From Alphaproteobacteria bacterium (GTDB lineage Bacteria > Pseudomonadota > Alphaproteobacteria > CAAHEQ01 > UBA3637): a stretch of 64,000 nucleotides of DNA. Under the pieces are notes generated by a model. The model saw nothing but the letters and a program-made list of their open reading frames with translations, ran no database searches and was not told where the DNA came from. The stretch covers positions 7,587 to 71,586 of the forward strand of contig SUUT01000006.1 of assembly GCA_015062385.1 (NCBI GenBank). The letters run 5' to 3'. The translations under genes and the position numbers were made by a program. Shown here one piece after another: positions 2 through 27,726 of this stretch (positions within the stretch are counted from its first letter, which is position 1; each line of letters begins with the position of its first letter).

Positions 2-757
2 TTTGAAATTACGGGTGTATCCGATATTATGCGAGGCAGTTCTAATGAACGGGAAACCGCAACCGCTGTTGAGAAAAAGACAAATTTTGGTACATTACGT
101 AATCAAGACCGTCAGAATGATATGCAACGCTTTTTGGCAGATTTATATCGTATTAAAGCCGATATGATTTGTACCTGTTTTACCCCGGATACATTGGCCG
201 GTTTTGTAAACGTGAGCGAAGGATATACCGAAAATGTTATTCAAGAAGCCGTATCGCTTTTAAAACAAGATAAATTAAGGGGGATGTTGCTTCATGTTGA
301 ATCAACGGGTATTGTTAATACTCAGGAAGAAATTTTACGTACGACACAGGGCGTTCAGATATTACAAGATTTGTTAAAAGATGCAATGAGTTTTGTATCT
401 GCTCAACCGTTATTGTTACCGATTTATAAGCAAATGATGATGACGGTTATCGGGCAAATGCCACAAGCTCGATCCTTTGAAAGTGTGTTGGATCAAACGT
501 TTTCTCATATTAAGACTGATTTGGAAAAACCGGATATGCAAGGTACGGAACAAATGCAACGCCATACTCAATTAACAGATCATCAAATGCGTATGGAAAA
601 TCAGGCATTGGAACAACAATTGTTTGAGCGAAAATTATCCGTTCGCAAATTACAACAAGAGTATGAATTAACGAAAGAAAAAAATGCCATTGAACGGGAA
701 AAAAATCTGTTGAAACAACGAGAGTTGGATATGAAAGAACATGAAACACAACAGTAA
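2..757 (+). CDS. phage portal protein, C-terminal part (5' end outside window)
   Basis: The frame is open from base 2, so ORF 29..757 is only the tail of a longer gene. It has a long Q/E/K-rich helical C-terminus (QQLFERKLSVRKLQQEYELTKEKNAIEREKNLLKQRELD), like podovirus portal barrels. It lies in a tail/lysis/terminase block. The call rests on resemblance and context only. Confidence 0.45.
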   Translation, partial: FEITGVSDIMRGSSNERETATAVEKKTNFGTLRNQDRQNDMQRFLADLYRIKADMICTCFTPDTLAGFVNVSEGYTENVIQEAVSLLKQDKLRGMLLHVESTGIVNTQEEILRTTQGVQILQDLLKDAMSFVSAQPLLLPIYKQMMMTVIGQMPQARSFESVLDQTFSHIKTDLEKPDMQGTEQMQRHTQLTDHQMRMENQALEQQLFERKLSVRKLQQEYELTKEKNAIEREKNLLKQRELDMKEHETQQ

Positions 758-767
758 AGCGGATTTG

Positions 768-785
768 TAGTTTTGCTATATGTTT
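768..785 (+). promoter_or_regulatory. conserved phage intergenic motif, copy 1 of 6
   Basis: tagttttgctatatgttt lies directly after the portal stop. It shares the consensus TA(G)TTTT(A/G)CTATA(T/A)GTT with copies at 1075, 6180, 8589, 9130 and 9155, all on the + strand. Confidence 0.5.
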
Positions 786-859
786 TTAATTGATATTATT
801 ATTTTAAGTTTTAAGTCATTGTTTTCTTTCCCCACTGTCACATTGGATTTAACATCTAT

Positions 860-1048
860 CGTCAATTTTGGAAAAATGTGAGAGCATTTTATCTGAAATC
901 TTGTCACGATAATGACACATCGTTTGTACTACTTCTAACTTTTCTTAGTTTTTCGTCTCCCTGAATTTATTTCAGAGTCTCGTGACGATAATGGTACATT
1001 TTTTGTGCCTGTTCTTTATAAGAATCTGAAACAAGTTCAGATTGACGG
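860..1048. repeat. two tandem hairpin-rich REP/MITE-like units
   Basis: The units carry terminal CGTCA-plus-hairpin ends (ctgaatttatttcag, ctgaaacaagttcag) and a central GTCACGATAATGG...GTGCC block. The first unit is collinear with 27271-27368. The same family occurs at 8244-8572, 18571-18743 and 27271-27490. Confidence 0.75.
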
Positions 1049-1074
1049 TAAGGGTAAGGAAGAATGAAAATACA

Positions 1075-1092
1075 TACTTTTACTATATGTTT
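1075..1092 (+). promoter_or_regulatory. conserved phage intergenic motif, copy 2 of 6 (left arm degenerate)
   Basis: tacttttactatatgttt begins the 500-bp block that is duplicated at 6180-6680. Confidence 0.45.
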
Positions 1093-1145
1093 GGACCATT
1101 AAAAATATCAATATTTGTTTAATTTTAACAAGAAAGGAAATCAAA

Positions 1146-1741
1146 ATGACAGATTTATCAACTTACGATATCTTAAATGATATCAGAAACGGGAAGACGC
1201 CGGTCAAAAGACAAAATCCGCAACCAGGGAAAGTCCGTATTATTATATTCAGTCTAACGGAGATAAATCATATCTGCCAATAACGGAAAAGAATATTATC
1301 GGTGTAAATTCGGCAGATGAACCCAATCCGCTTTGGCGTAGTACGTTTCAAAAGACAACAAATAAGGGAAGTAGTGAATCAACACCGACAAGTGTTTCCG
1401 ATTTGGTTTTATCGGGAACAGGCGATACATCTCCAACGGATAGTTTGGGAATAAATTCCACACAAACGGATAATTTGGGCTTTAATTCTGTTTCATCAAC
1501 AAATAACACAATGTCTTTGTTTGATACGCCTCAAACAATGTCGTCAATATTAGGCACAAGTTCAACCGGTTCGGTTAATATTGAATCAAAATGGCCAAAG
1601 TTATATCAAGCGGCCCGAGAATTTAACCAACAAGAATTGTGTAATAATATTGCTCGGACAACAAAAGATCGTCCGGATATGATAGAAAGAAACGCTTGGG
1701 GTTTAAATGAATGTTTGCAGGATGATTTTATTCAAAAATAG
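1146..1741 (+). pseudogene. frameshifted orphan copy of the 6251..7354 gene with a different short C-terminus
   Basis: The same RBS and ATG context as 6251 is present (aagaaaggaaatcaaaatgacagat). Where 6331-6335 has GGGGG, this copy has AGGG (1226-1229), one base shorter. The ATG frame therefore stops at 1281-1283 and the homologous frame continues as track ORF 1403..1741. Homology ends near 1574, after which a different 55-aa tail follows. Confidence 0.7.
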
Positions 1742-1756
1742 CTTGCAAGGAGCGGA

Positions 1757-1788
1757 TATTGAGCATATAGTAAGCTATATGCTCAATA
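1757..1788 (+). promoter_or_regulatory. perfect 14-bp stem hairpin/palindrome (tattgagcatatag-taag-ctatatgctcaata)
   Basis: Read directly from the sequence. There is no following T-run. It contains the same ATATAG/CTATAT arms as the six-copy motif and lies between the orphan gene and the tandem array. Confidence 0.6.
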
Positions 1789-1810
1789 TAGTGTCTGGGA
1801 GGAGGGTTGC

Positions 1811-2275
1811 ATGTTCAAGAATAAATTTTTCCATATTTTAATTTGTTTGTGTATGAGTTTTACAGGATACGCCCAAGAACCGACAACTTTTGTAGATGAA
1901 CGGTTTAATCAGGTGTTAAAAGAATATTCATACAGGAGTGGAGATGCAAAGGTGACTCCTGATACTGTGATTAATCCTTACGGAAATGAATATGTTAATA
2001 TTATTAAAGGCGATTGTGAACTGTTAAAAAATGAAATAGGATACATTAAACTGCATTGTCGTACATGGAAAGTGTGTATGAAAACACCCAGTTGTGATGC
2101 TCCGGTAGAGCCTTTTTCGGATGACTTTATTTTTGTGATATTGGATGAAACAACGGAGAGGGAAGGTAAAACATATCGACTGATACACATGCGATATTCA
2201 GGAGGAGGTAGTTTTGAAGATTTTTTTTCCAGAACAACATTAATGATAGAGGAAAAGTCTAATGTTCAAGAATAA
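1811..2275 (+). CDS. secreted 154-aa protein, tandem copy 1 of 3
   Basis: It has a Sec-type signal (MFKNKFFHILICLCMSFTGYA|QE) and four conserved Cys. It is one of three head-to-tail copies with a 451-bp period, each ATG lying 14 nt inside the previous ORF. Confidence 0.7.
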   Translation: MFKNKFFHILICLCMSFTGYAQEPTTFVDERFNQVLKEYSYRSGDAKVTPDTVINPYGNEYVNIIKGDCELLKNEIGYIKLHCRTWKVCMKTPSCDAPVEPFSDDFIFVILDETTEREGKTYRLIHMRYSGGGSFEDFFSRTTLMIEEKSNVQE

Positions 2276-2726
2276 GTGTTTCCATATTTTAATTTGTTTG
2301 TGTATGAGTTTTACAGGATACGCCCAAGAGCCGATAACTTTTGTAGATGAACGGTTTAACCAGGTGTTAAAAGAATATTCATACAATAGTGGTGATGTAA
2401 AAGTGACTCCTGATACTGTGATTAGTGCTTATGGTTATGAATACGTTAATATTATTAAAGGCAATTGTGAATTGTTAGAAAATGAAATAGGATACATTAA
2501 ACTGCATTGTCGTACAAGGCAGAACTGTATGAAATCACCCAGTTGTGATGCTCCGATTAAGGCATTTCAAAATTATTTGAGTTTTGAGATATTGGATGAA
2601 ACAATAGAGTGGAAGGGTAAAACATACAGGCTTGTAGAAATGCGATATTCAGGACGAGATAAATTAGAAGATTCTTTTTCCGGAACAACATTAATGATAG
2701 AGGAAAAGACTGATGTTCAAGAATAA
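2262..2726 (+). CDS. secreted 154-aa protein, tandem copy 2 of 3
   Basis: Paralog of 1811..2275 with the same signal peptide and Cys spacing. Confidence 0.7.
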   Translation: MFKNKCFHILICLCMSFTGYAQEPITFVDERFNQVLKEYSYNSGDVKVTPDTVISAYGYEYVNIIKGNCELLENEIGYIKLHCRTRQNCMKSPSCDAPIKAFQNYLSFEILDETIEWKGKTYRLVEMRYSGRDKLEDSFSGTTLMIEEKTDVQE

Positions 2727-3177
2727 ATTTTTCCATATTTTAATTTGTTTATGTGTGAGTTTTACAGGATATGCTCAAGAGTCGATAACTTTTGTAGATG
2801 AACGGTTTAATCAGGTGTTAAAAGAATATTCATACAGGAGTGGAGATGCAAAGGTGACTCCTGATACTGTGATTAATCCTTATGGGAATGAATATGTTAA
2901 TATTATTAAGGGCAATTGCGAACTGTTAAAAAATGAAATAGGATACATTAAATTGCATTGTCGAACATGGCAAGACTGTATGAAAACGCCCAGTTGTGAT
3001 GCTCCGATTAAGGCATTTCAAAATTATTTGAGTTTTGAGATATTGGATGAAACAATAGAGTGGAAGGGTAAAACATACAGGCTTGTAGAAATGCGATATT
3101 CAGGACAGGATAAATTAGAAGATTCTTTTTCCGGAAAAACATTAATGATAGAGGAAAAGCCACATGGTCAAGAATAA
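2713..3177 (+). CDS. secreted 154-aa protein, tandem copy 3 of 3 (mosaic of copies 1 and 2)
   Basis: The N-terminal two thirds match copy 1 (YRSGDAKVTPDTVINPYGNEYV). The C-terminal third matches copy 2 (IKAFQNYLSFEILDETIEWKGKTYRLVEMRYSG). Confidence 0.7.
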   Translation: MFKNKFFHILICLCVSFTGYAQESITFVDERFNQVLKEYSYRSGDAKVTPDTVINPYGNEYVNIIKGNCELLKNEIGYIKLHCRTWQDCMKTPSCDAPIKAFQNYLSFEILDETIEWKGKTYRLVEMRYSGQDKLEDSFSGKTLMIEEKPHGQE

Positions 3178-3211
3178 ATGTTTCTATGATCTTGCCGGTT
3201 ATTTATAAACT

Positions 3212-3748
3212 TTAATATAATCCGAAAAATGTCGGGTAAAATAATGGTTTATCAATGTTGGAAATTAGCGGAATCAAAATGTTTTGATCGTATGCATATT
3301 CCCATATTCGCCAAACAACGGGAATTAAAATCAATGCCCAAGCCCAGTTTGGATTTTTGCGATAAATATAAATTGACAAGACAATCGCAGGCAAGCATAT
3401 CCCTAAAAACAAACCATTATACAAATAAAATTCTTTTAAACAATGCCAATCCCATCCGCAGGTATAACAACCCCATTTTACCCCGGCTGACAAGCCGTTT
3501 GTCCATACGTCAATAATAAAATAAAATGTTAATGCCAAAAACAACATATCAAAAACAGTTATGCCGATAAACAAAATCTGAAAAATCTTAGCTAAAACAG
3601 AATGTGACGGTTTATTCGGTGTTGTATCAATATCTTTTGATTTTAACCGTTTACGCACTGACGGTAATAACCGATATGATAATGGGACAAAAGCCGATTG
3701 ATAGGCCCGTTTAATATTTCTGGATGATTTGCGAGGCATTACATTCAT
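3212..3748 (-). CDS. integral membrane protein, opposite strand inside the phage block (moron-like)
   Basis: The 178-aa ORF has several hydrophobic helices (ILFIGITVFDMLFLALTFYFII, LFLGICLPAIVLSIYIY, WALILIPVVW). No family was recognised. Confidence 0.5.
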   Translation of the reverse strand: MNVMPRKSSRNIKRAYQSAFVPLSYRLLPSVRKRLKSKDIDTTPNKPSHSVLAKIFQILFIGITVFDMLFLALTFYFIIDVWTNGLSAGVKWGCYTCGWDWHCLKEFYLYNGLFLGICLPAIVLSIYIYRKNPNWAWALILIPVVWRIWEYAYDQNILIPLISNIDKPLFYPTFFGLY

Positions 3749-3913
3749 TCTCCCTGATAGATTTATTCAAAATTCTATCAGGTAATTTTCTGAATTGCAA
3801 CAGAAAAAAACAGGTGTCGCAAAATTTCTTTGTCGGCACTTTTTATTTTAATTTTTAACGGGCGTTATTGTGTTTAAAGCATACAACGCTCTTTTTTTAC
3901 GGAGAAAATAAAG

Positions 3914-4639
3914 ATGAGTACGATTTTAGAAATTTGTCAGGATGTTGCTTCACTGGTTGCAACACAAAAACCGGATACATTGTTTGATACGGATAATCAA
4001 CAATCCGCCATTTTTTTAAGCATTGCCAAAGATACGTTGGAAAGTTTACGGCGTTATGGTGATTGGCAGGAGTTAACCAAAGAGGGCTCTTTAACCGTTA
4101 CGCCTAATAAGTCAATCTATCGATTACGGGATGTTTGTCCTGATTTTTATTCATTGATGAACAATACGGTATATGTGCGGGATACGTCCGAACGGATTAT
4201 CGGGTCCATTACGCCCGAACAATGGATGAATGACCGTTTTTTTAATGTAGGTGTATCGGAAATGCGGTTTAAAATTCAAAATAATTGTTTGCGATTTTTA
4301 ACACCGCCCACACAACGTTGTCGGATTGTGTTTTATTATCGGTCAAGCGTTATTGCGGTTTCATCCGAAACGGATTGTCCATGTGATGAAATTGAAAAAA
4401 CAACCTTAACGGCAGATACGGATATTCCTGTATTTGATGAATATCTGGTTAAGTTGGGTATTATCTGGCGGTGGTATAAACGTAACGGATTGCCATATGA
4501 AGAAGAATTTAACGAATATACAAAGGAAGTGAAAAATCGTTTTAGCAATGGGTTATGTTTAAAAGATATTCCGTTAGCCCGTTGTTTTGATACGTCTTTA
4601 AACGGATTGGGAGGTGTTCATGTTATTACGAAAGCCTAA
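3914..4639 (+). CDS. phage structural protein (head-tail adaptor/tail accessory candidate)
   Basis: The 241-aa ORF has an RBS (ggagaaaataaagatg) and overlaps the next gene by 20 nt. The call is by position only, upstream of a large beta-rich tail-like protein. Confidence 0.4.
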   Translation: MSTILEICQDVASLVATQKPDTLFDTDNQQSAIFLSIAKDTLESLRRYGDWQELTKEGSLTVTPNKSIYRLRDVCPDFYSLMNNTVYVRDTSERIIGSITPEQWMNDRFFNVGVSEMRFKIQNNCLRFLTPPTQRCRIVFYYRSSVIAVSSETDCPCDEIEKTTLTADTDIPVFDEYLVKLGIIWRWYKRNGLPYEEEFNEYTKEVKNRFSNGLCLKDIPLARCFDTSLNGLGGVHVITKA

Positions 4640-6182
4640 TCGAACAAACAAGTCGGTCAACTATGTGTTGCCGTGTCCCAGCGGGGGATTAAATGCCCGT
4701 GATAGTCGGGATAAAATGCAGTTAACCGATGCCATTGTTATGGATAATTATATGCCGTTAAATACACAGGTTTCTTTGCGAAAAGGATATCGTAAATATG
4801 TACCCTTGTCATGTGCAGTAAAAACATTAGTGACATATAATGCACCGGATGGAAAAGACCGTTTATTTGCTTTTGGTGGTGGTACGGTATGGGATATTAC
4901 CAGTGTTCTGGATGTGCGGGATTTGGAAAAAACATATACCGGTAATACATGGCAAACATGTCAGTTTAAAAATCGGTTGTTTGCCGTCAATGGTGTTGAT
5001 GTTCCGCAAACGTATGTGCCGGATGAAACGGGTGTTTCGGTCGGGTCTTGGGAAGATGTGTCTTTTTCGGGTGACAATTTAAATTTAACCAAGCTTGTGC
5101 AGGTTGGTGTTTCAAAACAACGCCTGTGGTTTGTTGAAAAAGGTAGTTTAACCGTTTGGTACACAAGTGGTGTTGCCGAAGTTCAGGGAACATTAATTCC
5201 GTTTGATTTTAGTACCGTTGCTACAAAAGGGGGGCATCTGGTTGCCGTTGGTTGTTGGACACAGGACGGTGGTCAGGGATTGGATGATTTAACTGTTTTT
5301 ATCACATCGGAAGGGGAAGTTCTTGTTTATAGTGGAACAAATCCAAGCAGTGCAGATGGTTGGATTTTACGGGGTGTGTATCAAATCAGCCGACCGCTTG
5401 GGTATGATTGTCTATTGCCATATCAAGGCGATTTGATTGTTTTGTGCGAAGCCGGATATTTACCGTTATCCAAAGCATTATCCTTGCAAAACGCTACCGA
5501 TACCCGTATTGCATTCAGCGATAAAATCAGGGAGCTGGTGCAAGATCGTATTCGGTCCAATCGGGCAAAGGACGGTTGGCAGGGGATTATATACAGTCGG
5601 GGCGGATATGCCTTGTTTAATGTGCCGGTTGCACAGCAATTTGAACAACATGTTGTGAATACTACAACTGGAGCATGGTGTCGGTTTACGGGTATTCGTT
5701 CTTATTGTTGGACGGTTTTTCAAACACGGCTTTATTTTGGAACAGATAATGGAGTTATGCTGTTTGATGAGGGGTATAGTGATGACGGGCAACCGATTGT
5801 CGGAGTTGTGGAACAGGCATTCAGTGATTTGGGTAGTCCGTACTTAAAAAAAGCACAGTTGATGAATCCCCGAACAAAATCATCATTGCCTTATGCTTTA
5901 ACGGTTTACTGGAATACGGATTATCAATCGGTTGAACGTAAAAATGCTTTATCGGTCGGTGATCAGAAAACGGTTTTGTGGAATCAGGTTAAATGGTCCT
6001 CATTAAAAGATAAAAGCGGGACACTTTGGGCAACGTTGAAAGGTCGTATTCGGTCGCAGTGGATTGGTTGCAATGCAACCGGTTTTAAATTGAGTTTGGT
6101 ATTTAAAACCAAAACAAAAGGAACCCTGATTGATTGGTATGAAACAGGTGTTCGCTATGAACAGGGAACCGGAATTTTATAG
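4620..6182 (+). CDS. phage tail hub/head-completion-like protein with beta-propeller-like repeats
   Basis: The start is taken at ATG 4620, behind gggagg. It has repeated beta-strand blocks (LFAFGGGTVWDIT, LFAVNGVDVP, LWFVEKGSLTVWYT, VFITSEGEVLVYSG, LYFGTDNGVMLF). Its size, position and C-terminal GFKL..L.F pattern recall P22 gp10-type proteins. Not verified. Confidence 0.4.
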   Translation: MLLRKPNRTNKSVNYVLPCPSGGLNARDSRDKMQLTDAIVMDNYMPLNTQVSLRKGYRKYVPLSCAVKTLVTYNAPDGKDRLFAFGGGTVWDITSVLDVRDLEKTYTGNTWQTCQFKNRLFAVNGVDVPQTYVPDETGVSVGSWEDVSFSGDNLNLTKLVQVGVSKQRLWFVEKGSLTVWYTSGVAEVQGTLIPFDFSTVATKGGHLVAVGCWTQDGGQGLDDLTVFITSEGEVLVYSGTNPSSADGWILRGVYQISRPLGYDCLLPYQGDLIVLCEAGYLPLSKALSLQNATDTRIAFSDKIRELVQDRIRSNRAKDGWQGIIYSRGGYALFNVPVAQQFEQHVVNTTTGAWCRFTGIRSYCWTVFQTRLYFGTDNGVMLFDEGYSDDGQPIVGVVEQAFSDLGSPYLKKAQLMNPRTKSSLPYALTVYWNTDYQSVERKNALSVGDQKTVLWNQVKWSSLKDKSGTLWATLKGRIRSQWIGCNATGFKLSLVFKTKTKGTLIDWYETGVRYEQGTGIL

Positions 6183-6197
6183 TTTTGCTATATGTTT
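6180..6197 (+). promoter_or_regulatory. conserved phage intergenic motif, copy 3 of 6
   Basis: tagttttgctatatgttt overlaps the stop of 4620..6182 and lies 54 nt upstream of ATG 6251. Confidence 0.5.
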
Positions 6198-6250
6198 GGA
6201 CCATTAAAAATATCAATATTTGTTTAATTTTAACAAGAAAGGAAATCAAA

Positions 6251-7354
6251 ATGACAGATTTATCAACTTACGATATCTTAAATGATATCAGAAACGGGAA
6301 GACCCCAGTCAAAAGACAAAATCCGCAACCGGGGGAAAGCCCATATTATTATATCCAGTCTAACGGAGATAAATCATATCTGCCAATAACGGAAAAGAAT
6401 ATTATTAATGTTAATTCGGCAGAGGAGCCGAATCCGCTATGGAGTAGTGCGTTTCAAAAGACAACAAATACGGGAAGTAATGAGGCAACACAAACAAGTG
6501 TTGCCGATTCGGTTTTATCGGGAACATTTGATACATTTCAAACGGATGGTTTGGGGACAAATTCCACGCAAACGGATAATTGGGGCTTCAATTCTGTTTC
6601 ATCAACAAATAACACAATGTCTTTGTTTGATACGCCTCAAACAATATCATCAATATTAGGTACAAGTTCAAGTGGTTCGGCAAATCCGTTTGGCACATCA
6701 TCATTTCAGCCGGATAATTCATCATTTTCTAACACAATCAATAATTATTTTACACCGAATATGTCGACTGAACAATCTTATCTTGATACCACTGCTCAAA
6801 CACAGAATACAATAGATATTAATACAAATTTAAAAACAAAGGAAAATTATTCAAACGCATATCCAATTATGCGTCCTGATAAAAGAAAATTAGTTCATTT
6901 TCCCCTTACTGAATATGTGAAGTATACAACAGGAAAGTTCGATTCCCCACATCCAAATAATCAAATTTTTGGAGCATTAAGAGATTTCGGAGAAAGTTAC
7001 ATTAATATGCAAAATGCAAATTTAAGAAGTAATCCGGAGACAAGAGAATCAGGAAAAACAATGGATAATTATGTACATTGTATAGCTAATTATAATGCTG
7101 CAAAACGAGGATCGTTAGGGGGGGGAACTGGATTGCTGTTAGGTGTATCTCGTGAGATGATGGATTTAATTAAAAATACAAAAAAAGGAGATATCTATTC
7201 GGCTTTAAAAGATGCTGTAAATGATCTTTCTGTTAATTCTGTTGGAATATTAAAAGGGATGACTAATTGGCATCAGTCAGCCGAAGAGGCTTGCCAAGAT
7301 TACAAACCGGAAAGTTATAATCCGATAGATGTTTATAAATGGTATCGTAAATAA
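6251..7354 (+). CDS. tail-associated protein: conserved N-module, S/T/N-rich linker, serum-amyloid-A-like C-terminal domain
   Basis: The start is taken at ATG 6251 (RBS aaggaaatcaaaatg). The C-terminus FGALRDFGESYINMQNAN...DNYVHCIANYNAAKRGSLGGG...VSRE parallels the vertebrate SAA motifs FDGARDMWRAYSDMREAN...DKYFHARGNYDAAKRGPGG...DARE. Confidence 0.6.
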   Translation: MTDLSTYDILNDIRNGKTPVKRQNPQPGESPYYYIQSNGDKSYLPITEKNIINVNSAEEPNPLWSSAFQKTTNTGSNEATQTSVADSVLSGTFDTFQTDGLGTNSTQTDNWGFNSVSSTNNTMSLFDTPQTISSILGTSSSGSANPFGTSSFQPDNSSFSNTINNYFTPNMSTEQSYLDTTAQTQNTIDINTNLKTKENYSNAYPIMRPDKRKLVHFPLTEYVKYTTGKFDSPHPNNQIFGALRDFGESYINMQNANLRSNPETRESGKTMDNYVHCIANYNAAKRGSLGGGTGLLLGVSREMMDLIKNTKKGDIYSALKDAVNDLSVNSVGILKGMTNWHQSAEEACQDYKPESYNPIDVYKWYRK

Positions 7355-7438
7355 TTTGTTTATGATGTAAAATTTTCTTGTTTATAGATGCATTTTGTTA
7401 TATGAATCTCGTGTAATAAGTGTATTAGGAGTGCCAAG

Positions 7439-8173
7439 ATGTTTTTATTTTGTGTTGTTTGTTTTCTTGTTTTTTTAGGATGGCAGTATCATGTTTATCA
7501 TTCTTTTTTAAGAATGACTAAATCGTGTTGCTTAATTAGTTACAAGGTTATCTTTGCACTTTTTACAATCGTATTATTTTTATTTTGTATCGGATGTTTG
7601 TTGTTATCTGTTCCGATTTGGATAATTTTTTTCGGTGGCTTATGTTTATATGTCTTGATGTTTTGCCTACTGGATATTGTATTATCACGGCAAGTGATAA
7701 AATACCGAAGTTTATGGTTTTTAAAGCCGATATGGATAAGTTTTTTTATCGTTAATTTATTATTTTTAATAATTGGTTTAGGGGAATATATTTCGGTTAT
7801 CGTATGGATTTGGGTACAATTAATGAGTGTTTTTTGGATTTGTTTATCTAAACAACTGTTTTCGTATTCTTTAAATTATACATCTATAAATGGTGTTTTT
7901 AGACGTTTATTTTTTTGTATTTCTTTGTTCTTTTCGGTAGGGATGGGGCTTATATGGATTTTGATATTTTTAAGTGTTTGCTTTTTGCCGATATTTAATT
8001 GGTTACCGGAGAATTCATCAGACACATGTTTGGATTTTGGATATTGTCAATCAGGTTTGGTAATTAAGTATTGCGATAATGATTGTTCGGATATAATAGT
8101 TAGCAAAGATTGGTGCCTATCTCAAAATTTTCATTGGGATGAAAATGGGCAGGCATGTATTTTACATCAATAA
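7439..8173 (+). CDS. polytopic membrane protein with Cys-rich C-terminal tail
   Basis: The 244-aa ORF has at least 6 hydrophobic helices. It ends in CLDFGYCQSGLVIKYCDNDCSDIIVSKDWCLSQNFHWDENGQAC. It lies directly downstream of the SAA-like gene. Confidence 0.55.
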   Translation: MFLFCVVCFLVFLGWQYHVYHSFLRMTKSCCLISYKVIFALFTIVLFLFCIGCLLLSVPIWIIFFGGLCLYVLMFCLLDIVLSRQVIKYRSLWFLKPIWISFFIVNLLFLIIGLGEYISVIVWIWVQLMSVFWICLSKQLFSYSLNYTSINGVFRRLFFCISLFFSVGMGLIWILIFLSVCFLPIFNWLPENSSDTCLDFGYCQSGLVIKYCDNDCSDIIVSKDWCLSQNFHWDENGQACILHQ

Positions 8174-8243
8174 TGTTAAAGATGAAGCTTGGTTATTGCT
8201 TTTTGTTTTGATTGTTGTTTTTCTTATTATATATCCCGCATTG

Positions 8244-8572
8244 CTCTGAATTTATTTCAAGGATTTGGTTACAATAATGGCAGAATGTTTGTGCCAATTC
8301 TACCCGAGATTCCGGACTAAATCCAGAATGACGGTAAGTGTAAATATTTGTTGTTATTTCAATCATTTTTAATGTTTTTCGTCACTCCGGACTTGGTCCG
8401 GAGTCTTGTCACAACAATGGCACACCATTCGTGCCACACCGTCCCGAGAATCTGAAACAAGTTCAGATGACGATGAGTGTAAAGGGGGGGCATCATTTTG
8501 TCCGAAATCTCGTCACGAAATGGCAGCGTGTTTGTGCCGGTTCTATACGAGACTCCGGATGACGATAGCGAT
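8244..8572. repeat. three tandem REP/MITE-like units
   Basis: The units lie at about 8244-8335, 8378-8472 and 8490-8572. Each contains GT(C/T)AC(G/A)A(T/C)AATGGCA-N8-GTGCC and hairpin ends (ccggacttggtccgg, ctgaaacaagttcag, ccggactaaatccag) next to GACG/CGTC. Confidence 0.8.
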
Positions 8573-8588
8573 GACAAACAATGATATA

Positions 8589-8606
8589 TAGTTTTACTAT
8601 GTGTTT
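8589..8606 (+). promoter_or_regulatory. conserved phage intergenic motif, copy 4 of 6
   Basis: tagttttactatgtgttt lies 63 nt upstream of ATG 8669, whose RBS context (aagaaaggaaataaaaatg) matches that of 6251. Confidence 0.5.
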
Positions 8607-8668
8607 GAGGATTTTCAATTCGTCGTTATGTATAAAATTGAGTTGTTTTTTTAAGAAAGGAAATAAAA

Positions 8669-9127
8669 ATGTCAATAAAAACAGATATATTATCTTCCAG
8701 TCAATCGGGAATGAGTGATGTGATATGGGATAAAGATTTATTAACCGTTCCTTGGGCTTGTGCCGGATTGGGGATAAAGCCTTCTGAAATTCGGATATTG
8801 ACGGCTTTAGCATTCTTTTGGCAGGGGCGTTTGGTCGGGTCGTTATTGTTTCATGATGGCTATGCCGGTCGGGATGTTTGGTGGACAATTTATACAGTAG
8901 ATAAACATTGGTGTCAACGGCGTTTTTTACGGACAATTTTTCGGGTTGCGTTTGAAGATTTTCATTTTCGCAGAATAGGAATTATTGTTCGGGCAGACAA
9001 TAAAAAATCATTGTCGTTGGTTCGTCGGCTTGGCTTTGTAGAGGAGGGACGATTTCGTCAAATTGAAGATGACGGAACGGATTGCCTTGTTTTTTCAATG
9101 CTCAAAAATGAAAATCAATTTGTATAA
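8669..9127 (+). CDS. GNAT-family N-acetyltransferase
   Basis: The C-terminal half (FHFRRIGIIVRADNKKSLSLVRRLGFVEEGRFRQ) fits the GNAT acetyl-CoA-binding beta4-alpha3 and beta5 pattern. Confidence 0.65.
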   Translation: MSIKTDILSSSQSGMSDVIWDKDLLTVPWACAGLGIKPSEIRILTALAFFWQGRLVGSLLFHDGYAGRDVWWTIYTVDKHWCQRRFLRTIFRVAFEDFHFRRIGIIVRADNKKSLSLVRRLGFVEEGRFRQIEDDGTDCLVFSMLKNENQFV

Positions 9128-10203: not shown

Positions 10204-11454
10204 ATGACAAATTTTAATTATGTTAATGATATTTTAAACGTTAATCGTCATGCTCCGAAAGCATTGGATTTAACGGGGATTGCCTCATTGCCGAATGCGG
10301 CGATAAATGGTTTACGAAATGGTATGGAGTTGAAAAATACAGTTTTGAAACAGCAGTCAACAGCAGATAGTTTATCTCGTCAACAGGCAGAAAACGATGT
10401 TCGGCGACAATATTTGCAAAATCCGGCTGCAAATACCATTTATGAGCCGTATTTTAACATCCGTCCATCTGGTCTTTCTCAAATGAATGGATATACAGTT
10501 AACGGCACAACTCAATCAGGTACCGATCGTTCTCGGATGATGCCGTCTAATGGATCTTCAATCAATAGTCGGGTAAATACATCCCGTACGCAAATGAGTG
10601 CAAAAGATAAAGAGTGGAATCGATTGACTGAGGCTGGTTTCGCTCCGCAAGAAATTATGTCTGTCTTATATCCGAAAGGTGTTCAAAGTAATGCTGTACA
10701 GCAAGAAAATCAAAAATCTTCAACAATGTTTGATAGATATGATTATTTTAACAAAAACAATCAAATAAATGACATTTCTAATCCAGTGAATGAAGATAAT
10801 TTTTCATCTTCAAACTTGATGAATGTTGGTCAAAATGTTTTTGTTTCTCCTCAACGTACACCGGTGGATTTTTCGGCTGTTGGAACAGATATGACAGTTC
10901 CTTCCGGCATGAATTTTGATACATCGGATGTGGCTAATCCGACAGATTTGAATACGTCATATCGACAAAATGCGTTTTCTTTTCCGCAATCGGATATCGT
11001 AAATGAAAAAACAATACCTATGCAATCGTTTATGTCCACATCTGAAACGGGGCCGATGAGTATGGATACAGTAAGTGATACATTAAATGCTTCCAATCCG
11101 GTAAGTAGTGAAATAAATACCTCAACGATGAGTGGAACAGTTGATAATGCATTTGTGTCAACAGGAACATCATCTGCTCCTACGGTTGAAAATATGCTAT
11201 CGACTTCCCCTGTCGGTTTAGGTGGAATGCATACAACAAATAATTATTCCTCCGAAACACAAAAATCAAGCGGACAAACATCATCGGTTGAAACTCAAAG
11301 CATGCATATGATGCCGTTTAAAACACAAGATGAATTGTATGCTTTTCAAGAAGCTGCTTTGGGAGCTGATTCTTCTTTAACCCCTGATCAACGCAATGCG
11401 CGTATTTTACAGGGCGTGCCAGTGTCTGATACATTTTGGAACAGCTTTGTTTAA
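10204..11454 (+). CDS. S/T/N-rich low-complexity virion protein (ejection/internal protein candidate)
   Basis: The 416-aa ORF has an RBS (aaggaaggttaaaatg) and extended S/T/N/M-rich segments. No family was recognised. Confidence 0.4.
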   Translation: MTNFNYVNDILNVNRHAPKALDLTGIASLPNAAINGLRNGMELKNTVLKQQSTADSLSRQQAENDVRRQYLQNPAANTIYEPYFNIRPSGLSQMNGYTVNGTTQSGTDRSRMMPSNGSSINSRVNTSRTQMSAKDKEWNRLTEAGFAPQEIMSVLYPKGVQSNAVQQENQKSSTMFDRYDYFNKNNQINDISNPVNEDNFSSSNLMNVGQNVFVSPQRTPVDFSAVGTDMTVPSGMNFDTSDVANPTDLNTSYRQNAFSFPQSDIVNEKTIPMQSFMSTSETGPMSMDTVSDTLNASNPVSSEINTSTMSGTVDNAFVSTGTSSAPTVENMLSTSPVGLGGMHTTNNYSSETQKSSGQTSSVETQSMHMMPFKTQDELYAFQEAALGADSSLTPDQRNARILQGVPVSDTFWNSFV

Positions 11455-11473: not shown

Positions 11474-11503
11474 TTCCCCCGAAAAGATGTTTTTTCGGGG
11501 GAA
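11474..11503 (+). terminator. strong intergenic hairpin (ttcccccgaaaa-gatgtt-ttttcgggggaa)
   Basis: A 12-bp stem is read directly from the sequence. There is no clear T-run, so it may be a processing or attenuation hairpin rather than a true terminator. Confidence 0.4.
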
Positions 11504-11522
11504 AACGTTTAGGGAGCGGAAA

Positions 11523-11813
11523 ATGGACAGGAGAAGAAAAATGCCAAAATCTATGGATAGATTTTATGAAGTTCTGCATAAAACGGTGACCGGTTTTTTA
11601 ATTCCGCTTGTTTTTTATTTGTTGGGTCAAATCAATGAAGTGAAAAAAGAGGTATCAATTTTTGAGTTGCGGGTTGCCAAAGATTCAGCACAGTATGCCC
11701 TGCGAGATGATATCGTGCGGGTAGAAACAAAAATTGATGAGTTAAAAACACTTATCATACAGGAGGTTAAACGAAATGAGCATTATTACACCGGCTTTAA
11801 AAAAGCGGATTAA
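11523..11813 (+). CDS. holin or i-spanin-like membrane protein
   Basis: The start is taken at ATG 11523, behind gggagcggaaa. It has one TM helix (VTGFLIPLVFYLLGQI) followed by a coiled coil. It lies immediately upstream of, and overlapping, the endolysin gene. Confidence 0.5.
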   Translation: MDRRRKMPKSMDRFYEVLHKTVTGFLIPLVFYLLGQINEVKKEVSIFELRVAKDSAQYALRDDIVRVETKIDELKTLIIQEVKRNEHYYTGFKKAD

Positions 11814-12201
11814 ACGACATGAAGGGATGCGTCTTAAACCGTATCATTGTCCGGCTGGACGACTGACAATTGGCATTGGGCGTAATTTAACTGATGTTGG
11901 TATAACAGAAACGGAAGCTGAGTATTTGTTGGAAAACGATTTGCAATCGGCCGAAAAAAATTGTTCGGATGCGTTTATTTGGTATGAAAAACTGGATAAT
12001 ATTCGAAAAGGCGTGATTGTGGAAATGGTTTTTAATTTAGGATTTGCGGGATTTTTGGGATTCCGCAAATTGATAAAAGCGTTAACGATAGGGGATTATC
12101 TGACCGCTTCGAAAGAAATGTTATCCAGTCGTTGGGCAGCACAGGTGGGGCATCGGGCAGAGGTATTATCGTTAATTATGAAAACAGGAAAGGAGTATTA
12201 A
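11776..12201 (+). CDS. T4-type (GH24) phage lysozyme/endolysin
   Basis: HEGMRLKPYHCPAGRLTIGIGRNL aligns with T4 lysozyme [24 protein letters not shown], including the catalytic Glu and Thr. EMVFNLGFAGFLGF...SRWAAQVGHRAEVL aligns with NMVFQMGETGVAGF...SRWYNQTPNRAKRV. Confidence 0.9.
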   Translation: MSIITPALKKRIKRHEGMRLKPYHCPAGRLTIGIGRNLTDVGITETEAEYLLENDLQSAEKNCSDAFIWYEKLDNIRKGVIVEMVFNLGFAGFLGFRKLIKALTIGDYLTASKEMLSSRWAAQVGHRAEVLSLIMKTGKEY

Positions 12202-14692: not shown

Positions 14693-15817
14693 TTATAAAC
14701 CGGCTTCAATTATATCCATATACTTTTTGAATATGTATTTTTTATATCTTTTTGTTTGATTGGTTTGGACTAATAATCCTTTTTCCACAAATCCATTTAC
14801 TAATTTATTTGCGGTTGCTTTACTAACTTGTAATGATTTCTCAACTGCTGAAATCTCTAATGTTGGTTTGACGAATAAAAAGTCAAAAAGTTTATACTCA
14901 TTTTCTCCTTTTAAAGTATGGGATAGTTCATTTTTTAACGAATTAATTTGAGTAGTTGTTTGCATAATTTGTTTGCAAACTATTTCTATTCCTTTTAAAA
15001 AGAACAAAATCCAAGTCTCAAAATCATTATTTTCTCTTGTTTTTGTTAAGAGAGTATAGTATTCTTGTTTATGTTTTTTTAAGTATAAACTCAAATATAA
15101 TGTCGGTTGTTCCAAGATGTTTTTGCTTATTAAAAATAAACTGATTAATAAACGTCCAATTCTTCCGTTTCCATCTAAAAATGGATGAATGGTTTCAAAT
15201 TGATAGTGTATTAATGCTAATTTAATAACATCGGGAAGTGTTCCTTCATAGATATATTTTTCTAAATCACTCATTAAATTAATTACGGTATCTTCTTTGG
15301 GTGGAACATAAATTGCGGTAGAGGGATTATTTCCGCCAATGAAATTTTGACTTCTTCTGAATTCGCCGGGGGTTTTGTCGTTTTCTCCACCTCTCACATT
15401 ATTCATTAAAATATTGTGACATTCTCTTAATAGCCTTGATGATAAAGGTAATCCACCATTTTTGATTTGATTGGTGGCATAATTTAAAGCATGCAAGTAG
15501 TTTTTCACTTCTATAATATCTACTTTTATATCATCATTATTATTGTTTTCATTTTGTAAAATTTCCACCATGGTGGATTGTGTCCCTTCTATCTGTGATG
15601 ATAATAATGCTTCTTTTAATGCATATTTTTCAATTAAAAGTTCCGGATTAGGTAATAAAATATTTAATGCATTTAATTGTCCTAATGCCCAAGTTGCACT
15701 GGAGATTGCTTGATATAGATTTGACAAATCCAATTCTTTTTCTATTTGTTGTAATGCATTTGGTTGAAAAGTGTCATATCCTCTGCCAGAATTTACTTTA
15801 CTTCCGGAAATTGGCAT
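14693..15817 (-). CDS. Fic-family protein (class II, N-terminal inhibitory helix, C-terminal wHTH-like domain)
   Basis: It has the Fic motif HPFLDGNGRIGR and the inhibitory motif S-x-x-x-E-G in LLSSQIEGTQS upstream. The C-terminal ~70 aa are winged-helix-like. Confidence 0.9.
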   Translation of the reverse strand: MPISGSKVNSGRGYDTFQPNALQQIEKELDLSNLYQAISSATWALGQLNALNILLPNPELLIEKYALKEALLSSQIEGTQSTMVEILQNENNNNDDIKVDIIEVKNYLHALNYATNQIKNGGLPLSSRLLRECHNILMNNVRGGENDKTPGEFRRSQNFIGGNNPSTAIYVPPKEDTVINLMSDLEKYIYEGTLPDVIKLALIHYQFETIHPFLDGNGRIGRLLISLFLISKNILEQPTLYLSLYLKKHKQEYYTLLTKTRENNDFETWILFFLKGIEIVCKQIMQTTTQINSLKNELSHTLKGENEYKLFDFLFVKPTLEISAVEKSLQVSKATANKLVNGFVEKGLLVQTNQTKRYKKYIFKKYMDIIEAGL

Positions 15818-16211: not shown

Positions 16212-18341
16212 CTATTGTATCAAAATCGCTTGTGCGGTTGATGAGAATACATCTATTGATGCATAAAACGTATTGGCAGGTGCTAGATCTTTATTGGTAT
16301 TTACCTGTGCCAATACAACAAGTTGATTACCTTTTGGTTTTTGTAATGCCATTAATAAATGTTGCCCATGATTATCATAGCATCCGGTATCTTGATCATA
16401 ATGAACCGGTACAAAATTTGAAATAGTTGTATTTGTTAAGATTATCTGATTGTTTGTTACAGTTAAACGACCGCTCCATCTTGGACAGCTTCCTAATTGA
16501 ACACTTGTAGAAATATCTGCTTTTTGATTTGTTCCGATTAATTGCCATACACCGGTTGTAATTGTTGTCGGAAAAGTAAATATTAACGAATTTCCTTTGG
16601 TTAATGAATATGTTCCAACATGATTAGCAATATCTTCATAATATCCGCCTGTTTCAATCGAAACGGTTACGGCACACGCTTTATGTTCATCATTCCAAGT
16701 TGCCCCCTCCGGACACGTAATACACGTTCTGCCATTATCATGTGAACCGGTCGGACAAGTACATCCTGTTTGTGTGGCATTTATGATATACGGTGCTGTA
16801 CACGTTGCACAGGTTGTCCCTGTATCATATGTTCCTGTCGGACAGACACATTTATCGCCTTCACGAGTATAGGGGGCAAAGCACATCGGGCCCCAATCCC
16901 GACATAATGCGTAGTGCGGTCCACCATGATAATCCGTAGAAGAGCTTTGATGTGTATTAACTTTGTTTTGAGATAACCAGAAACAGGCTCGTTGACAAGT
17001 CATATTGCCACTCTGACTCCAAGGATTATAGGTAATCCACGGACCACTTGAATATCCGGCATTTATTAAATTGGTTGTAATTATCTTATATACTGAACTA
17101 TCATATCCGCTACATGTTTGGGCCTGATTGTCAATTGCTAGATTGTTTGTACATCCTAAATCAGGAACGGATACCATTTGTTTCCCCAAAGCTGTACAGA
17201 AGTTAATGGCTGATTCCCAACCTTTATTGCCGTCTCCATAATCTTTTTTAGAGAAATAAAAGTTGACACCGTTAATTTTGAAAGTGATGAAATCCAATTT
17301 TTCACAACGAGCATTGCTAAATGTTCCCGTTTCACAAATATTATCCCCCCGTGTACAGAAATAATTTGTATCATTATTGTACAGTTTATGACAATCATCA
17401 TTCGATTCGCATTCATTCGGCGAACATTCTTTACCATTCCAATACGGCGCAGAACTTGGACAGGCAATACATTCGTTTGTATTAACGGCAAAAACCGGTG
17501 TTGCATCCGGACATTTTTCACATTTGTCTGGATTTGTACTGTTCACATTATAAAATGGGCGTTCATCCGGACACGATTTGCAGGTATTATTTGATGTATC
17601 ACAGACAAGGTTCGGAATTTGACACGTACTGTCATCGATGCATTCAACACATTCTTCATTATGCCATACAGGTGTCATATCCGGACAACGACACGTTGTT
17701 TCATCTTCAAACCATTCTTTGGGCGGATAACACCGTTCGCAATTATCTCCAAATTCATATTCGTGACGACAAACACAACCATATGTACCATCTTCTTTTT
17801 GTCGCCATACCATTTTATCGGGGCAGGATTGCGGTTCAATATTTGGATTATCCGTTTCTGTTTCAGTGGTTCCGCCGAAATGACTGTCTGAATTAACAAC
17901 CGGAATTGCATTAAAAGAAAACACCATATTTGTTTTGCTGTTTGGATTTCCGCACGTTCTTGTTAAAATTGAAATACCCATATCATTCAATATACCTTCC
18001 TTTTGAAGGAGTTTTTCACAAACCTTATAAACCACTTTAAATGTCGTTACCTGATAATTACTATTAACCAACTTGACCATGGACTTTTTGTCATCAGGGA
18101 CATATTCGGAAAGTGCTGATTTAATAAACCGATTGACTTCCAATGCATGAGAAGCCCGAGAATCTGTTTGTGCCAATGTTTTGGCTTTTCCGAGAACATC
18201 CTGCACTTTGCCGGCTTGATAAGCCGTTAACGCATATTGGTAAGTAGCAACACCGGCAACAGATAATACACCGATAATTGCCAATACCCCTAGCATTTCC
18301 ACCATACTTCGTCCGGTTTCATTCAGTTTGATTTTAAACAT
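16212..18341 (-). CDS. type IV pilin-like N-terminus fused to Cys-rich ectodomain with lectin-like insert
   Basis: MFKIKLNETG|RSMVEMLGVLAIIGVLSVAG has a Gly, Glu at +5 and a hydrophobic helix. The RBS is gggaggag. It has dense C-x-x-C / C-x-C repeats, a W-x-S-A-x-x-F-C-x-x-x-G module, and a Cys-poor beta-rich C-terminal ~140 aa. Confidence 0.8.
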   Translation of the reverse strand: MFKIKLNETGRSMVEMLGVLAIIGVLSVAGVATYQYALTAYQAGKVQDVLGKAKTLAQTDSRASHALEVNRFIKSALSEYVPDDKKSMVKLVNSNYQVTTFKVVYKVCEKLLQKEGILNDMGISILTRTCGNPNSKTNMVFSFNAIPVVNSDSHFGGTTETETDNPNIEPQSCPDKMVWRQKEDGTYGCVCRHEYEFGDNCERCYPPKEWFEDETTCRCPDMTPVWHNEECVECIDDSTCQIPNLVCDTSNNTCKSCPDERPFYNVNSTNPDKCEKCPDATPVFAVNTNECIACPSSAPYWNGKECSPNECESNDDCHKLYNNDTNYFCTRGDNICETGTFSNARCEKLDFITFKINGVNFYFSKKDYGDGNKGWESAINFCTALGKQMVSVPDLGCTNNLAIDNQAQTCSGYDSSVYKIITTNLINAGYSSGPWITYNPWSQSGNMTCQRACFWLSQNKVNTHQSSSTDYHGGPHYALCRDWGPMCFAPYTREGDKCVCPTGTYDTGTTCATCTAPYIINATQTGCTCPTGSHDNGRTCITCPEGATWNDEHKACAVTVSIETGGYYEDIANHVGTYSLTKGNSLIFTFPTTITTGVWQLIGTNQKADISTSVQLGSCPRWSGRLTVTNNQIILTNTTISNFVPVHYDQDTGCYDNHGQHLLMALQKPKGNQLVVLAQVNTNKDLAPANTFYASIDVFSSTAQAILIQ

Positions 18342-18380: not shown

Positions 18381-18536
18381 AAAAAAAGGTACCTTTTTTT
18401 CCCGCTTCGAATCGAAAGAATCGGATTTTTAAGAAAATGAAAAATTATTGTTTTTATTGAATTGGTTAGTTAAAATCAAAAAAAATGTCAAAATGTGAAA
18501 AAAATTGTTGCATTTATACGTACCTTTTTGTACAGA
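18381..18536 (-). promoter_or_regulatory. conserved upstream element, copy A
   Basis: This is the reverse complement of 27526-27678. It ends in the perfect palindrome aaaaaaaggtaccttttttt (18381-18400). It also contains an A8/T8 tract and the tctgtacaaaaaggtacgta box. Confidence 0.75.
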
Positions 18537-19231: not shown

Positions 19232-19261
19232 AGTGTTTAACCGTCAACCCATTCGTGTTCA

Positions 19262-27678: not shown

Positions 27679-27726
27679 ATTACACTCACTTTATAAATGC
27701 AACTTTATAATTGTGAGGGTAAGATT

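Follow-up and report, generated by a model that had tools for sequence, protein, structure and literature searches.

Why should a gene lying among the tail genes of a podovirus-like prophage encode a protein that ends in the likeness of serum amyloid A (SAA), a major acute-phase protein whose molecular activity is itself debated? The question is raised by a 64,000-nucleotide (nt) stretch of alphaproteobacterial DNA (contig SUUT01000006.1 of assembly GCA_015062385.1; hereafter the window), in which positions 6183-8668 hold two genes, one encoding SAAL, a 367-amino-acid (aa) protein with an SAA-like C-terminus, and the other TM244, a 244-aa membrane protein. The answer that we consider probable is that 6183-8668 is a toxin-immunity cassette, composed of an effector of the prok-SAA family and its membrane partner, inserted in the operon of late tail genes of a podovirus-like prophage, the host being an uncultured alphaproteobacterium of the gut. 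The observations behind this answer are homology to SAA, a corresponding fold, conservation of particular residues, the insertion itself, a conserved pairing of the two genes, and an alternative C-terminus carried on the same N-terminus. The prok-SAA family was defined by Burroughs et al. (eLife 2025, PMC12419801), who placed SAA in the Lipocone superfamily and proposed that it descended from bacterial toxins that target lipid head groups. The SAAL gene and its parts are as follows.

6185..6250, plus strand: leader with a ribosome-binding site, duplicated from 1080-1145 (DNA alignment, repeat search); it begins right after the stop codon of the upstream nozzle gene and forms the left edge of the cassette

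6251..7354, plus strand: gene for SAAL (public protein P0001), a 367-aa SAA-like candidate effector consisting of an N-terminal module, a disordered linker and a prok-SAA/Lipocone domain

6251..6445, plus strand: N-terminal module of ~65 aa, with the pattern G-K-x-P-V-x-R-x-N-P-x-P-G-x-S-x-Y-Y ... P-N-P

6446..6943, plus strand: S/T/N-rich linker, probably disordered, the last part of which (6863-6931, YPIMRPDKRKLVHFPLTEYVKYT) is conserved in the closest clade

6944..7351, plus strand: SAA-like four-helix domain (prok-SAA, Lipocone superfamily), residues 232-367, from profiles, model and conservation

D272 (7064), H276 (7076), G287 (7109), E302 (7154), D325 (7223) and N329 (7235), plus strand: family-invariant residues, from 105 relatives on the A1 model described below

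C277 (7079) and C348 (7292), plus strand: cysteines coupled by their co-occurrence among relatives

An open reading frame (ORF) is present at 6185-7354 on the plus strand, but translation likely begins at the ATG of 6251, 8 nt after an AAGGAA ribosome-binding site; the 367-aa product is identical to P0001, and the identical protein was found on 18 metagenome contigs. For the C-terminus, the original prediction of an SAA-like domain at 6965-7354 is borne out, with a span of about 6944-7351, by profiles, by an AlphaFold2 (AF2) model and by Foldseek. In Pfam, SAA is the sole match to the last 129 aa (PF00277, E=5.5e-6, 27.2 bits, profile positions 12-70 of 102), although this check succeeded only in part: SAAL by itself stays below the gathering score of the family, whereas a profile of 14 relatives finds SAA chains at E=1.1e-12. 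In a BLASTP comparison with human SAA1, identity is 26% over 95 residues (pairwise E=8e-7), and the motifs listed earlier as shared with SAA are the ones that align.

An exhaustive HMMER search with the last 160 aa against 1.84 billion representative proteins (E<=1e-3) recovered 105 relatives of the domain, from which two alignments were made, A1 with 54 relatives trimmed to the domain, and A2 with the 14 closest, 40-51% identical to SAAL. Every one of the 54 A1 members matches Pfam SAA at E<1e-3 (best 3.7e-31), the close relative P0008 scores 46 bits against that family, and the A1 profile finds SAA chains in the PDB at E=1.9e-26. Because A1 contains very SAA-like members, the test was also made with A2 only; SAA chains again came top (E from 1.1e-12 to 6e-8), and no other match had E below 0.008. 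A phmmer search of the PDB with the single SAAL protein ranked SAA first, at only E=0.4-1.8.

The AF2 model built on A1 (predicted local distance difference test score, pLDDT, 89.8; predicted template-modelling score 0.85) has four long helices, at domain residues 4-24, 40-54, 57-81 and 84-107, followed by short C-terminal ones. The earlier suggestion that it be compared with the SAA four-helix bundle has a clear outcome, in that the best seven Foldseek matches in the PDB are all SAA1 or SAA3, including retinol-bound SAA3 (probability 1.00, target-normalised template-modelling score 0.66-0.73), and the eighth has E>1. Since the model derives from an alignment of SAA relatives, its match to the SAA fold depends in part on the sequence evidence. 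The profile E-values together with the fold match rule out a similarity due to chance or composition, and by profile and model the C-terminus of SAAL is truly homologous to SAA. Other searches were blank: a word-index search for homologs of the C-terminal 160 aa returned nothing, a fold search of BFVD returned no viral protein with the SAAL fold at a meaningful score, and PHROGs, NCBIfam and PADLOC had no match for SAAL or TM244.

Conservation within the family falls on a small set of polar residues. Among the roughly 103-104 relatives aligned per position, D272, H276, G287, E302 and D325 are identical in 102-104, and position 329 is Asn in 98 and Asp in 5; SAAL retains every family-invariant polar residue, plus G332. 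By-eye mapping on the alignment of A1 with PDB chains places the invariant positions on D33, H37, G48, E63, D79 and N83 of mature human SAA1. The ancestral Lipocone pocket comprises a His (H2), a Glu (H3) and an Asp (H4), and the SAA-Wnt clade carries an sNxxGR motif (PMC12419801), which in SAAL reads VNSVGI, with N and G kept, R replaced by Ile, and Val at the "small" position. C277 and C348 are both present in 87 relatives and both missing from 9, with a single relative having only one; SAAL has both. Because the two cysteines co-occur, they probably form a disulfide, and the domain would act outside the cytoplasm. Like vertebrate SAA (PF00277; PDB 4IP8, 4Q5G), SAAL has the fold, the DxYFH motif, the (K/R)RG turn, the RE motif, the D...N..G of helix 4 and the YRP...Y tail, but identity is ~26%, a 10-residue insert separates helices 1 and 2, there is an extra Cys pair, a 230-aa N-terminal region is fused ahead of the domain, and the context is one of bacterial conflict, not that of an apolipoprotein.

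Prok-SAA toxins are delivered by type VI secretion systems or MuF (PMC12419801), and SAA toxin tips, MuF and PGBD fusions and the Imm-SAA partner have all been described (PMC12419801); by its sequence the window locus fits that system. Alike in the two are the C-terminal SAA four-helix domain with its conserved His, Glu and Asp/Asn, the position of the toxin tip behind a trafficking N-terminus and a disordered linker, with MuF, RHS and PGBD fusions among relatives, and a partner gene directly downstream whose product is anchored by transmembrane (TM) segments and stabilised by cysteines. SAAL differs from described prok-SAA proteins in scoring below the Pfam SAA threshold, in the Ile that replaces the R of sNxxGR, and in a short module related to the start of MuF proteins without the MuF core, while TM244 has six Cys, where Imm-SAA is described with four, and ~6 TM segments; the insertion point lies behind a podovirus nozzle gene, and the hosts are Alphaproteobacteria of gut and rumen. 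Particular to the window locus are thus the trimmed N-terminal module, the six-TM, six-Cys partner, and the insertion after the nozzle gene.

The N-terminal module is common to SAAL, to a frameshifted paralog named copyA, and to the N-terminus of a protein with a Phage_Mu_F domain. That protein is encoded at 18446-19474 of locus L009 (loci outside the window carry L numbers here) and has the domain PF04233 at 53 bits; SAAL residues 2-62 align with its residues 14-75 at 34% identity (E=7e-9), the aligned stretch sits just before the MuF core, and its C-terminus is lysozyme-like. Relatives of SAAL with 259-262 aa, in L021-L024, are 46-52% identical to the same MuF-protein N-terminus, and close relatives align with SAAL from query residue 1. 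It is proposed, from these alignments, that the module serves in trafficking or packaging. An alignment of the module (A5) was too variable for scanning the protein collection, and a word-index search with the N-terminal 207 aa of SAAL returned only a fragment and P0107. The linker is 58% S/T/N/Q/G/P; single-sequence AF2 prediction gives pLDDT 31 for the whole protein and ~24 for the linker, which is weak support for a disordered middle and weak evidence against a coiled coil.

That the C-terminus is exchangeable is apparent from two relatives of the N-terminal part. P0107 (307 aa, in L018) has the S/T linker in common with SAAL, but its C-terminus is another one, SAA-like by eye (DNYMHRRAQIEAAQWG...KED...D..NN.DG), with no Pfam match; at L018 1125-5080 its gene is followed by one for a 169-aa membrane protein and, further downstream, by genes for two ~260-aa polytopic membrane proteins. 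The other relative, copyA, lies in the window with a set of tandem genes beside it.

1080..1741, plus strand: copyA, frameshifted SAAL paralog, ATG at 1146 (DNA alignment, repeat search)

1811..3177, plus strand: three tandem genes for 154-aa paralogs with signal-peptide-like N-termini (repeat family D1, 90-93% DNA identity, spacing 451 nt)

At 89-96% DNA identity, 1074-1578 is a repeat of 6179-6684 that takes in ~70 nt of leader, the N-terminal module and the greater part of the linker. copyA has lost 1 nt near 1226, and beyond the repeat it is unrelated to SAAL, with a 55-aa C-terminus that contains two Cys (NIESKWPKLYQAAREFNQQELCNNIARTTKDRPDMIERNAWGLNECLQDDFIQK). Its ATG lies 389 nt after the stop of the portal gene (757), the SAAL gene lying instead after the nozzle gene; muf genes sit immediately downstream of the portal gene (PMC5576092). 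Like the MuF polymorphic toxins (Jamet et al., BMC Biol 2017, PMC5576092), the SAAL group is prophage-encoded, has a conserved N-terminus, a variable C-terminal toxin and a small downstream gene as presumed immunity, and includes a member, copyA, immediately downstream of the portal gene; unlike them, SAAL has no detectable PF04233 or PF06152, its intact copy follows the nozzle gene, and its presumed target is periplasmic, not cytoplasmic. The tandem 154-aa proteins have no family matches, 131-aa lipoproteins related to them adjoin the MuF and lysozyme-like protein in L009 (19474-20333), and the array is possibly one of immunity or inhibitor genes for copyA.

Domain relatives show the fusions expected of a polymorphic toxin tip: P0071, P0094 and P0100 have RHS/YD-repeat motifs and a DPxGL junction (Pfam RHS is matched only by P0100, just below threshold), P0084 is a sub-threshold MuF fusion, and P0016 and P0034 are PG_binding_1 fusions. 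The survey of SAA-like domains that the original prediction had called for has found 105 relatives, RHS-, MuF- and PG_binding_1-type fusions among them, and three podovirus contigs in IMG/VR. A shared N-terminus with alternative C-termini, characteristic of polymorphic toxins, is found in copyA compared with SAAL and, for the linker, in P0107, and a cognate gene immediately downstream, likewise characteristic, is found by genomic evidence in the TM244 homologs and in the partner of another relative, P0065.

The second gene of the cassette encodes that candidate partner.

7439..8173, plus strand: TM244, 244-aa membrane protein with ~6 predicted TM segments, candidate immunity protein; homologs directly downstream of SAA-like genes in L003-L014 and L022-L024

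8003..8170, plus strand: cysteine-rich C-terminal domain of TM244, predicted periplasmic (A4 invariants; hhalign)

In the TM244 family the hydrophobic N-terminal 190 residues are poorly conserved, and conservation centres on a C-terminal domain of ~55 aa with five invariant Cys and a sixth nearly so (>=90% of sequences), in the pattern D-x-C-L-D-x-G-x-C ... C-L-x-x-N-x-x-W ... C. Because Lys and Arg are confined to alternate loops of the window protein (9 in these and 0 in the others, by a hand-made positive-inside count), the C-terminal domain is predicted to be periplasmic, after about six TM segments. A distant comparison is available in P0065, an SAA-type toxin ~33% identical in the domain, with a MuF-like HPNCKC motif but without a Pfam MuF match. 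The gene directly after it (L019) encodes a 79-aa single-TM protein, and the C-terminus of this protein matches the TM244 domain in hhalign with a probability of 96.2% (E=2.6e-9) and four Cys in common; by sequence, then, the cysteine-rich domain of the partner tracks SAA toxins over a long distance. Prok-SAA toxins are paired with "TM+[TM+TM+]Imm-SAA", in which Imm-SAA is stabilised by four absolutely conserved cysteines (PMC12419801), and TM244 matches this published description, the likeness being to the description, not to its authors' sequences. At L019 itself a 57-aa gene with Pfam Imm_superinfect (PF14373) adjoins the 79-aa Imm-SAA-like gene (5042-5615), and the locus lies between pheT and a 5'-nucleotidase gene with no obvious prophage.

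How the pair came to stand where it does can be read from the genes on either side, which belong to a phage-derived cluster.

3914..4639, plus strand: head-to-tail adaptor or tubular tail A-like gene (PF24175 SU10_adaptor, 32.2 bits; phrog_6013, E=8e-33)

4614..6182, plus strand: nozzle, tubular tail B or P22 gp10-like gene, 522 aa, left flank of the insert (phrog_5107, E=4e-83)

8669..9127, plus strand: GNAT-like gene, right flank of the insert (phrog_4470, E=5.6e-23; synteny with MT835830 and phiGT1)

In MT835830, a phage from human faeces that is the closest phage relative, the nozzle is 53% identical to that of the window and is followed directly by the GNAT-like gene; likewise in Sulfitobacter phage phiGT1 a gene for a GNAT-like "head assembly protein" comes immediately after that for tubular tail B. 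The two genes are separated in the window by 2.5 kb (6183-8668), on which SAAL and TM244 are encoded. Because the nozzle gene abuts the GNAT-like gene in both phages, the pair is an insertion and not a conserved tail component. Its GC content is 0.35 (SAAL) and 0.29 (TM244), as compared to 0.43 and 0.40 in the flanking genes. The ~495 nt from TM244 to the GNAT-like gene (8174-8668) have no convincing plus-strand ORF and may be the right-hand remnant of the cassette. A promoter scan gave no excess over shuffles, a result with no bearing on whether the pair is transcribed independently, and blastn of 3900-8200 found a sole short match, within the nozzle gene.

Beyond the window, the next gene after the SAA-like one encodes a TM244 homolog in 12 of 13 loci from GTDB genomes (L003-L014) and in three of four full-length metagenome loci (L022-L024; the contig of L021 ends ~240 bases after the gene); among the related loci whose sequence continues beyond the SAA-like gene, the figure is 15 of 16. 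L012 has two tandem SAA-like/TM244 pairs. All 13 GTDB loci come from gut or rumen metagenome-assembled genomes (MAGs), eleven of them from Alphaproteobacteria or Rhodospirillales, one from a "proteobacterium" and one from a Lachnospiraceae (a 3.8-kb contig); the pair is common in uncultured gut and rumen Alphaproteobacteria. It stands between dnaK and rpsA in L013, and between tgt and a response-regulator gene in L009. In the related genome and metagenome loci no adaptor, nozzle, portal or terminase homologs were detected, and PHROGs found nothing structural around L006 and L004. Neither syntenic chromosomal neighbourhoods nor hidden prophages were seen at the related loci (BLAST against all window ORFs; Pfam and PHROGs on neighbours). 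The SAA-like gene is apparently truncated or frameshifted in L004, L005, L011, L013, L014 and possibly L003, with the membrane gene intact there; a decayed toxin gene beside an intact membrane gene is the arrangement of orphan immunity genes, which these sequences fit.

The phage element itself occupies one end of the window. Because the genes at 23-53 kb (UvrC, D-Ala-D-Ala carboxypeptidase, PBP2, RF3, CTP synthase, PolA) are of housekeeping type, the window is read as bacterial chromosome with a phage-derived cluster at 1-14.4 kb. In its left half the cluster runs from the portal C-terminus through copyA, the three tandem 154-aa genes and a 178-aa membrane gene (minus strand) to the adaptor and nozzle genes, and in its right half from SAAL and TM244 through the GNAT-like gene, a virion structural protein gene, a gene for a 416-aa S/T-rich protein, a holin-like gene and a lysozyme gene to the large terminase. 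Tblastn with the 522-aa nozzle found matches in podoviruses of Alphaproteobacteria (Brucella, Sulfitobacter and Rhizobium phages included), annotated as tubular tail B or phage stabilization protein; a sequence search of the PDB gave no match to the nozzle or adaptor proteins. Between its portal and adaptor genes MT835830 (L017, 5807-8313) has genes for a 266-aa scaffold-like protein, a 323-aa putative capsid protein and a 213-aa protein. The window starts within the portal gene, and the left part of the element lies outside it. The gene complement suggests that the element is probably a defective prophage, or one with a replaced head module.

Several other features of the window lie within or beside the cluster. 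The 416-aa protein (10204-11454), S/T/N-rich and encoded downstream of the virion structural protein gene, has no family matches and could be a divergent injection protein. Beside the terminase end is a Fic-domain gene (14693-15817, minus strand; GC 0.289) that scores E=1.9e-113 against SoFic, an anti-phage defence model of PADLOC; L006 has a 68%-identical copy, 1.2 kb upstream of its SAA-like pair. Two large ORFs, at 16212-18341 (minus, 709 aa) and 27697-31344 (plus, 1215 aa), have no Pfam matches at E<=1e-5; an ORF beside the SAA-like pair in L005 resembled the 709-aa protein in one BLAST run and a different window ORF in the next.

If the cassette is a toxin-immunity pair, it would work in the following way. 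The effector, built like a polymorphic toxin from the MuF-related module of ~65 aa, a disordered S/T-rich linker and a prok-SAA tip, would most likely be loaded into phage particles via its N-terminal module and ejected into the next cell, release at lysis being the alternative. Delivery is the weakest step; the MuF-related module and the late-operon position favour particle loading and ejection. In the periplasm of the target cell the SAA-like domain may then act on phosphate-linked lipid head groups, candidate substrates being undecaprenyl-linked carriers of cell-wall or polysaccharide units, or envelope phospholipids. The analogy is with TelC, a phosphatase that cleaves lipid II and shows activity nowhere but outside the cytoplasm, and with PTDSS1/2, which exchange phospholipid head groups (PMC12419801). 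TelC and TipC of Streptococcus intermedius offer a mechanistic template, that of a soluble, extracytoplasmic Lipocone toxin with a membrane- or surface-anchored immunity protein, but TelC belongs to another Lipocone clade, is delivered by a type VII secretion system and comes from a Gram-positive organism, and is likened to SAAL by mechanism and not by sequence. TM244, for its part, would hold its disulfide-rich domain at the inner membrane, facing the periplasm, where it could bind and neutralise the toxin and thereby protect the lysogen and its kin.

A number of points weigh against this interpretation. SAAL alone scores 27.2-28.2 bits against a PF00277 gathering score of 30.8, and the R of sNxxGR, which it has exchanged for Ile, is present in 66 of the 105 relatives. 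To our knowledge no member of the prok-SAA family has been biochemically tested, and vertebrate SAA keeps the same polar residues with, as far as we know, no enzyme activity. SAAL has no Pfam MuF match even at E<=1 (neither PF04233 nor PF06152) and no signal peptide, so that its export or packaging is only presumed, and the periplasmic placement of the TM244 C-terminus is a prediction that stands on the hand-made charge count. MT835830 has scaffold, putative capsid and 213-aa genes of which no homologs were found anywhere in the window (757-3913 compared); the element may for this reason be defective, so that delivery by particles may fail in this strain. The majority of related pairs are not next to phage structural genes, and their delivery is left unexplained. 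Finally, the decay of toxin genes at related loci could partly be MAG assembly error.

The occurrence of SAA-type genes in other phages introduces a serious rival. Tblastn with whole SAAL against 50,697 GenBank phage records found nothing, and neither did a scan of IMG/VR with A2, that is, with the close clade; the same scan with A1 found four contigs. Three of these encode a 196-213-aa protein with a PG_binding-like region (by eye) and an SAA domain, followed by a 63-73-aa single-TM protein with two Cys, and in each the pair lies in a T7-like structural module, just before tubular A in L027 (7737-8508) and L028 (5494-6292) and just after tubular B in L029 (3925-4744). The variable position suggests, on present sequences, a mobile insert in late operons. 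The L029 pair fills the stretch between tubular B and the tail fibre; in T7 the internal virion proteins are encoded between tubular B and the tail fibre. In a comparison of the small two-Cys proteins with the TM244 family, hhalign gave a probability of 39%, a weak match, and they are not claimed to be the same domain.

SAAL might therefore be regarded as an ejection (internal virion) protein, whose Lipocone domain attacks envelope lipids or lipid-linked polymers for genome entry, much as the gp16 transglycosylase of T7 acts on peptidoglycan, with TM244 as a superinfection-exclusion factor. The late-operon site after the nozzle is used by T7-like and phiGT1-like phages for the genes of internal virion or injection proteins, muramidase domains being present in some of these, the N-terminal module is common with a MuF and lysozyme-like protein, and the viral contigs just described place PG_binding-type SAA genes with small TM partners beside tubular A or B (L027-L029). 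Yet this phage group can infect without the gene, since the closest relatives lack it, its position varies from before tubular A (L027, L028) to after tubular B (L029), the pair persists away from phages, and decayed toxin genes beside intact partner genes fit toxin-immunity better. We regard this rival as unlikely, but as the one that has to be kept in view.

The original prediction took SAAL for a P22-type tail needle with a receptor-binding tip, recognised the upstream gene as a tail hub, and suggested the downstream membrane protein as a cognate protection factor. The hub stands, since the gene is of the P22 gp10 or tubular tail B type (phrog_5107, E=4e-83; tblastn), and protection is plausible in view of the pairing at 15 of 16 loci and the homology of the TM244 C-terminal domain to the protein partnered with P0065. 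A gp26-like needle or plug, with an SAA-like tip that binds OmpA-type receptors or lipids, now has little to recommend it. The late operon of P22 has the order 10, 26, 14, with the needle gene at this junction. The position of SAAL between gp10-like and GNAT-like genes is indeed like that of gp26, the GNAT-like gene being the gp14 equivalent according to a note in the phiGT1 record, and mammalian SAA reportedly binds OmpA (cited in PMC12419801). But the insertion is absent from MT835830 and phiGT1, which are related phages; there is no coiled-coil-like region in SAAL, whose S/T-rich middle was not confidently modelled (a single-sequence run and a weak test); the N-terminus resembles that of MuF proteins; and the gene has a conserved, immunity-like partner, occurs outside phages and among housekeeping genes, and has a paralog, copyA, with a different C-terminus after the portal gene. 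A needle is therefore very unlikely.

We give equally little credence to the reading that SAAL is an inert remnant, or a non-enzymatic binder of lipids or retinoid-like ligands, as would be consistent with an element that lacks the capsid-region genes of MT835830, with the frameshift in copyA, and with matched structures that include retinol-bound SAA3, a protein that binds retinol. The SAAL ORF is intact, however, and identical on 18 contigs, the invariant polar residues and the cysteine pair are retained, and the partner gene is conserved. Least probable of all is a lysis accessory acting, in the manner of endolysins or amurins, on lipid II or outer-membrane lipids of the producer, with TM244 as a holin-like gate or regulator: PG_binding_1 relatives followed by small TM proteins recall this, since endolysins of Gram-negative phages typically have a PG_binding_1 architecture, and late expression would be expected of the cassette, but a separate holin-like and lysozyme pair is already present at 11487-12201, TM244 with its ~6 TM segments and cysteine-rich domain is unlike holins, and the TM244-type domain follows an SAA toxin at non-phage L019, and the pair persists at non-phage loci.

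With the toxin-immunity cassette as the preferred reading, a wider proposal can be put forward, although we think it quite unlikely as it stands, namely that SAA-type Lipocone proteins are a recurrent and so far unrecognised virion cargo of podoviruses, loaded in this case via a MuF-derived mini-module, ejected into the periplasm, and there cutting lipid-linked envelope precursors, with the cysteine-rich membrane partners serving as a prophage layer of exclusion and immunity.

For annotation and for phage biology, the locus is a modest extension of a described system and introduces no new principle. Its value lies in being a compact and clearly delimited effector-partner pair, with invariant candidate catalytic residues, a probable disulfide and a membrane-anchored, cysteine-rich candidate inhibitor, for which copyA, with the same N-terminus and another C-terminus, is a natural control. 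The pair is also found as a mobile insert within tail-gene operons of podoviruses, in the window and, as a related PGBD form, in three IMG/VR contigs. If the virion-cargo reading is true, the bacterial and phage ancestors of SAA would have been envelope-attacking enzymes, and the gene pair would provide a direct genetic assay for the biochemical activity of SAA.

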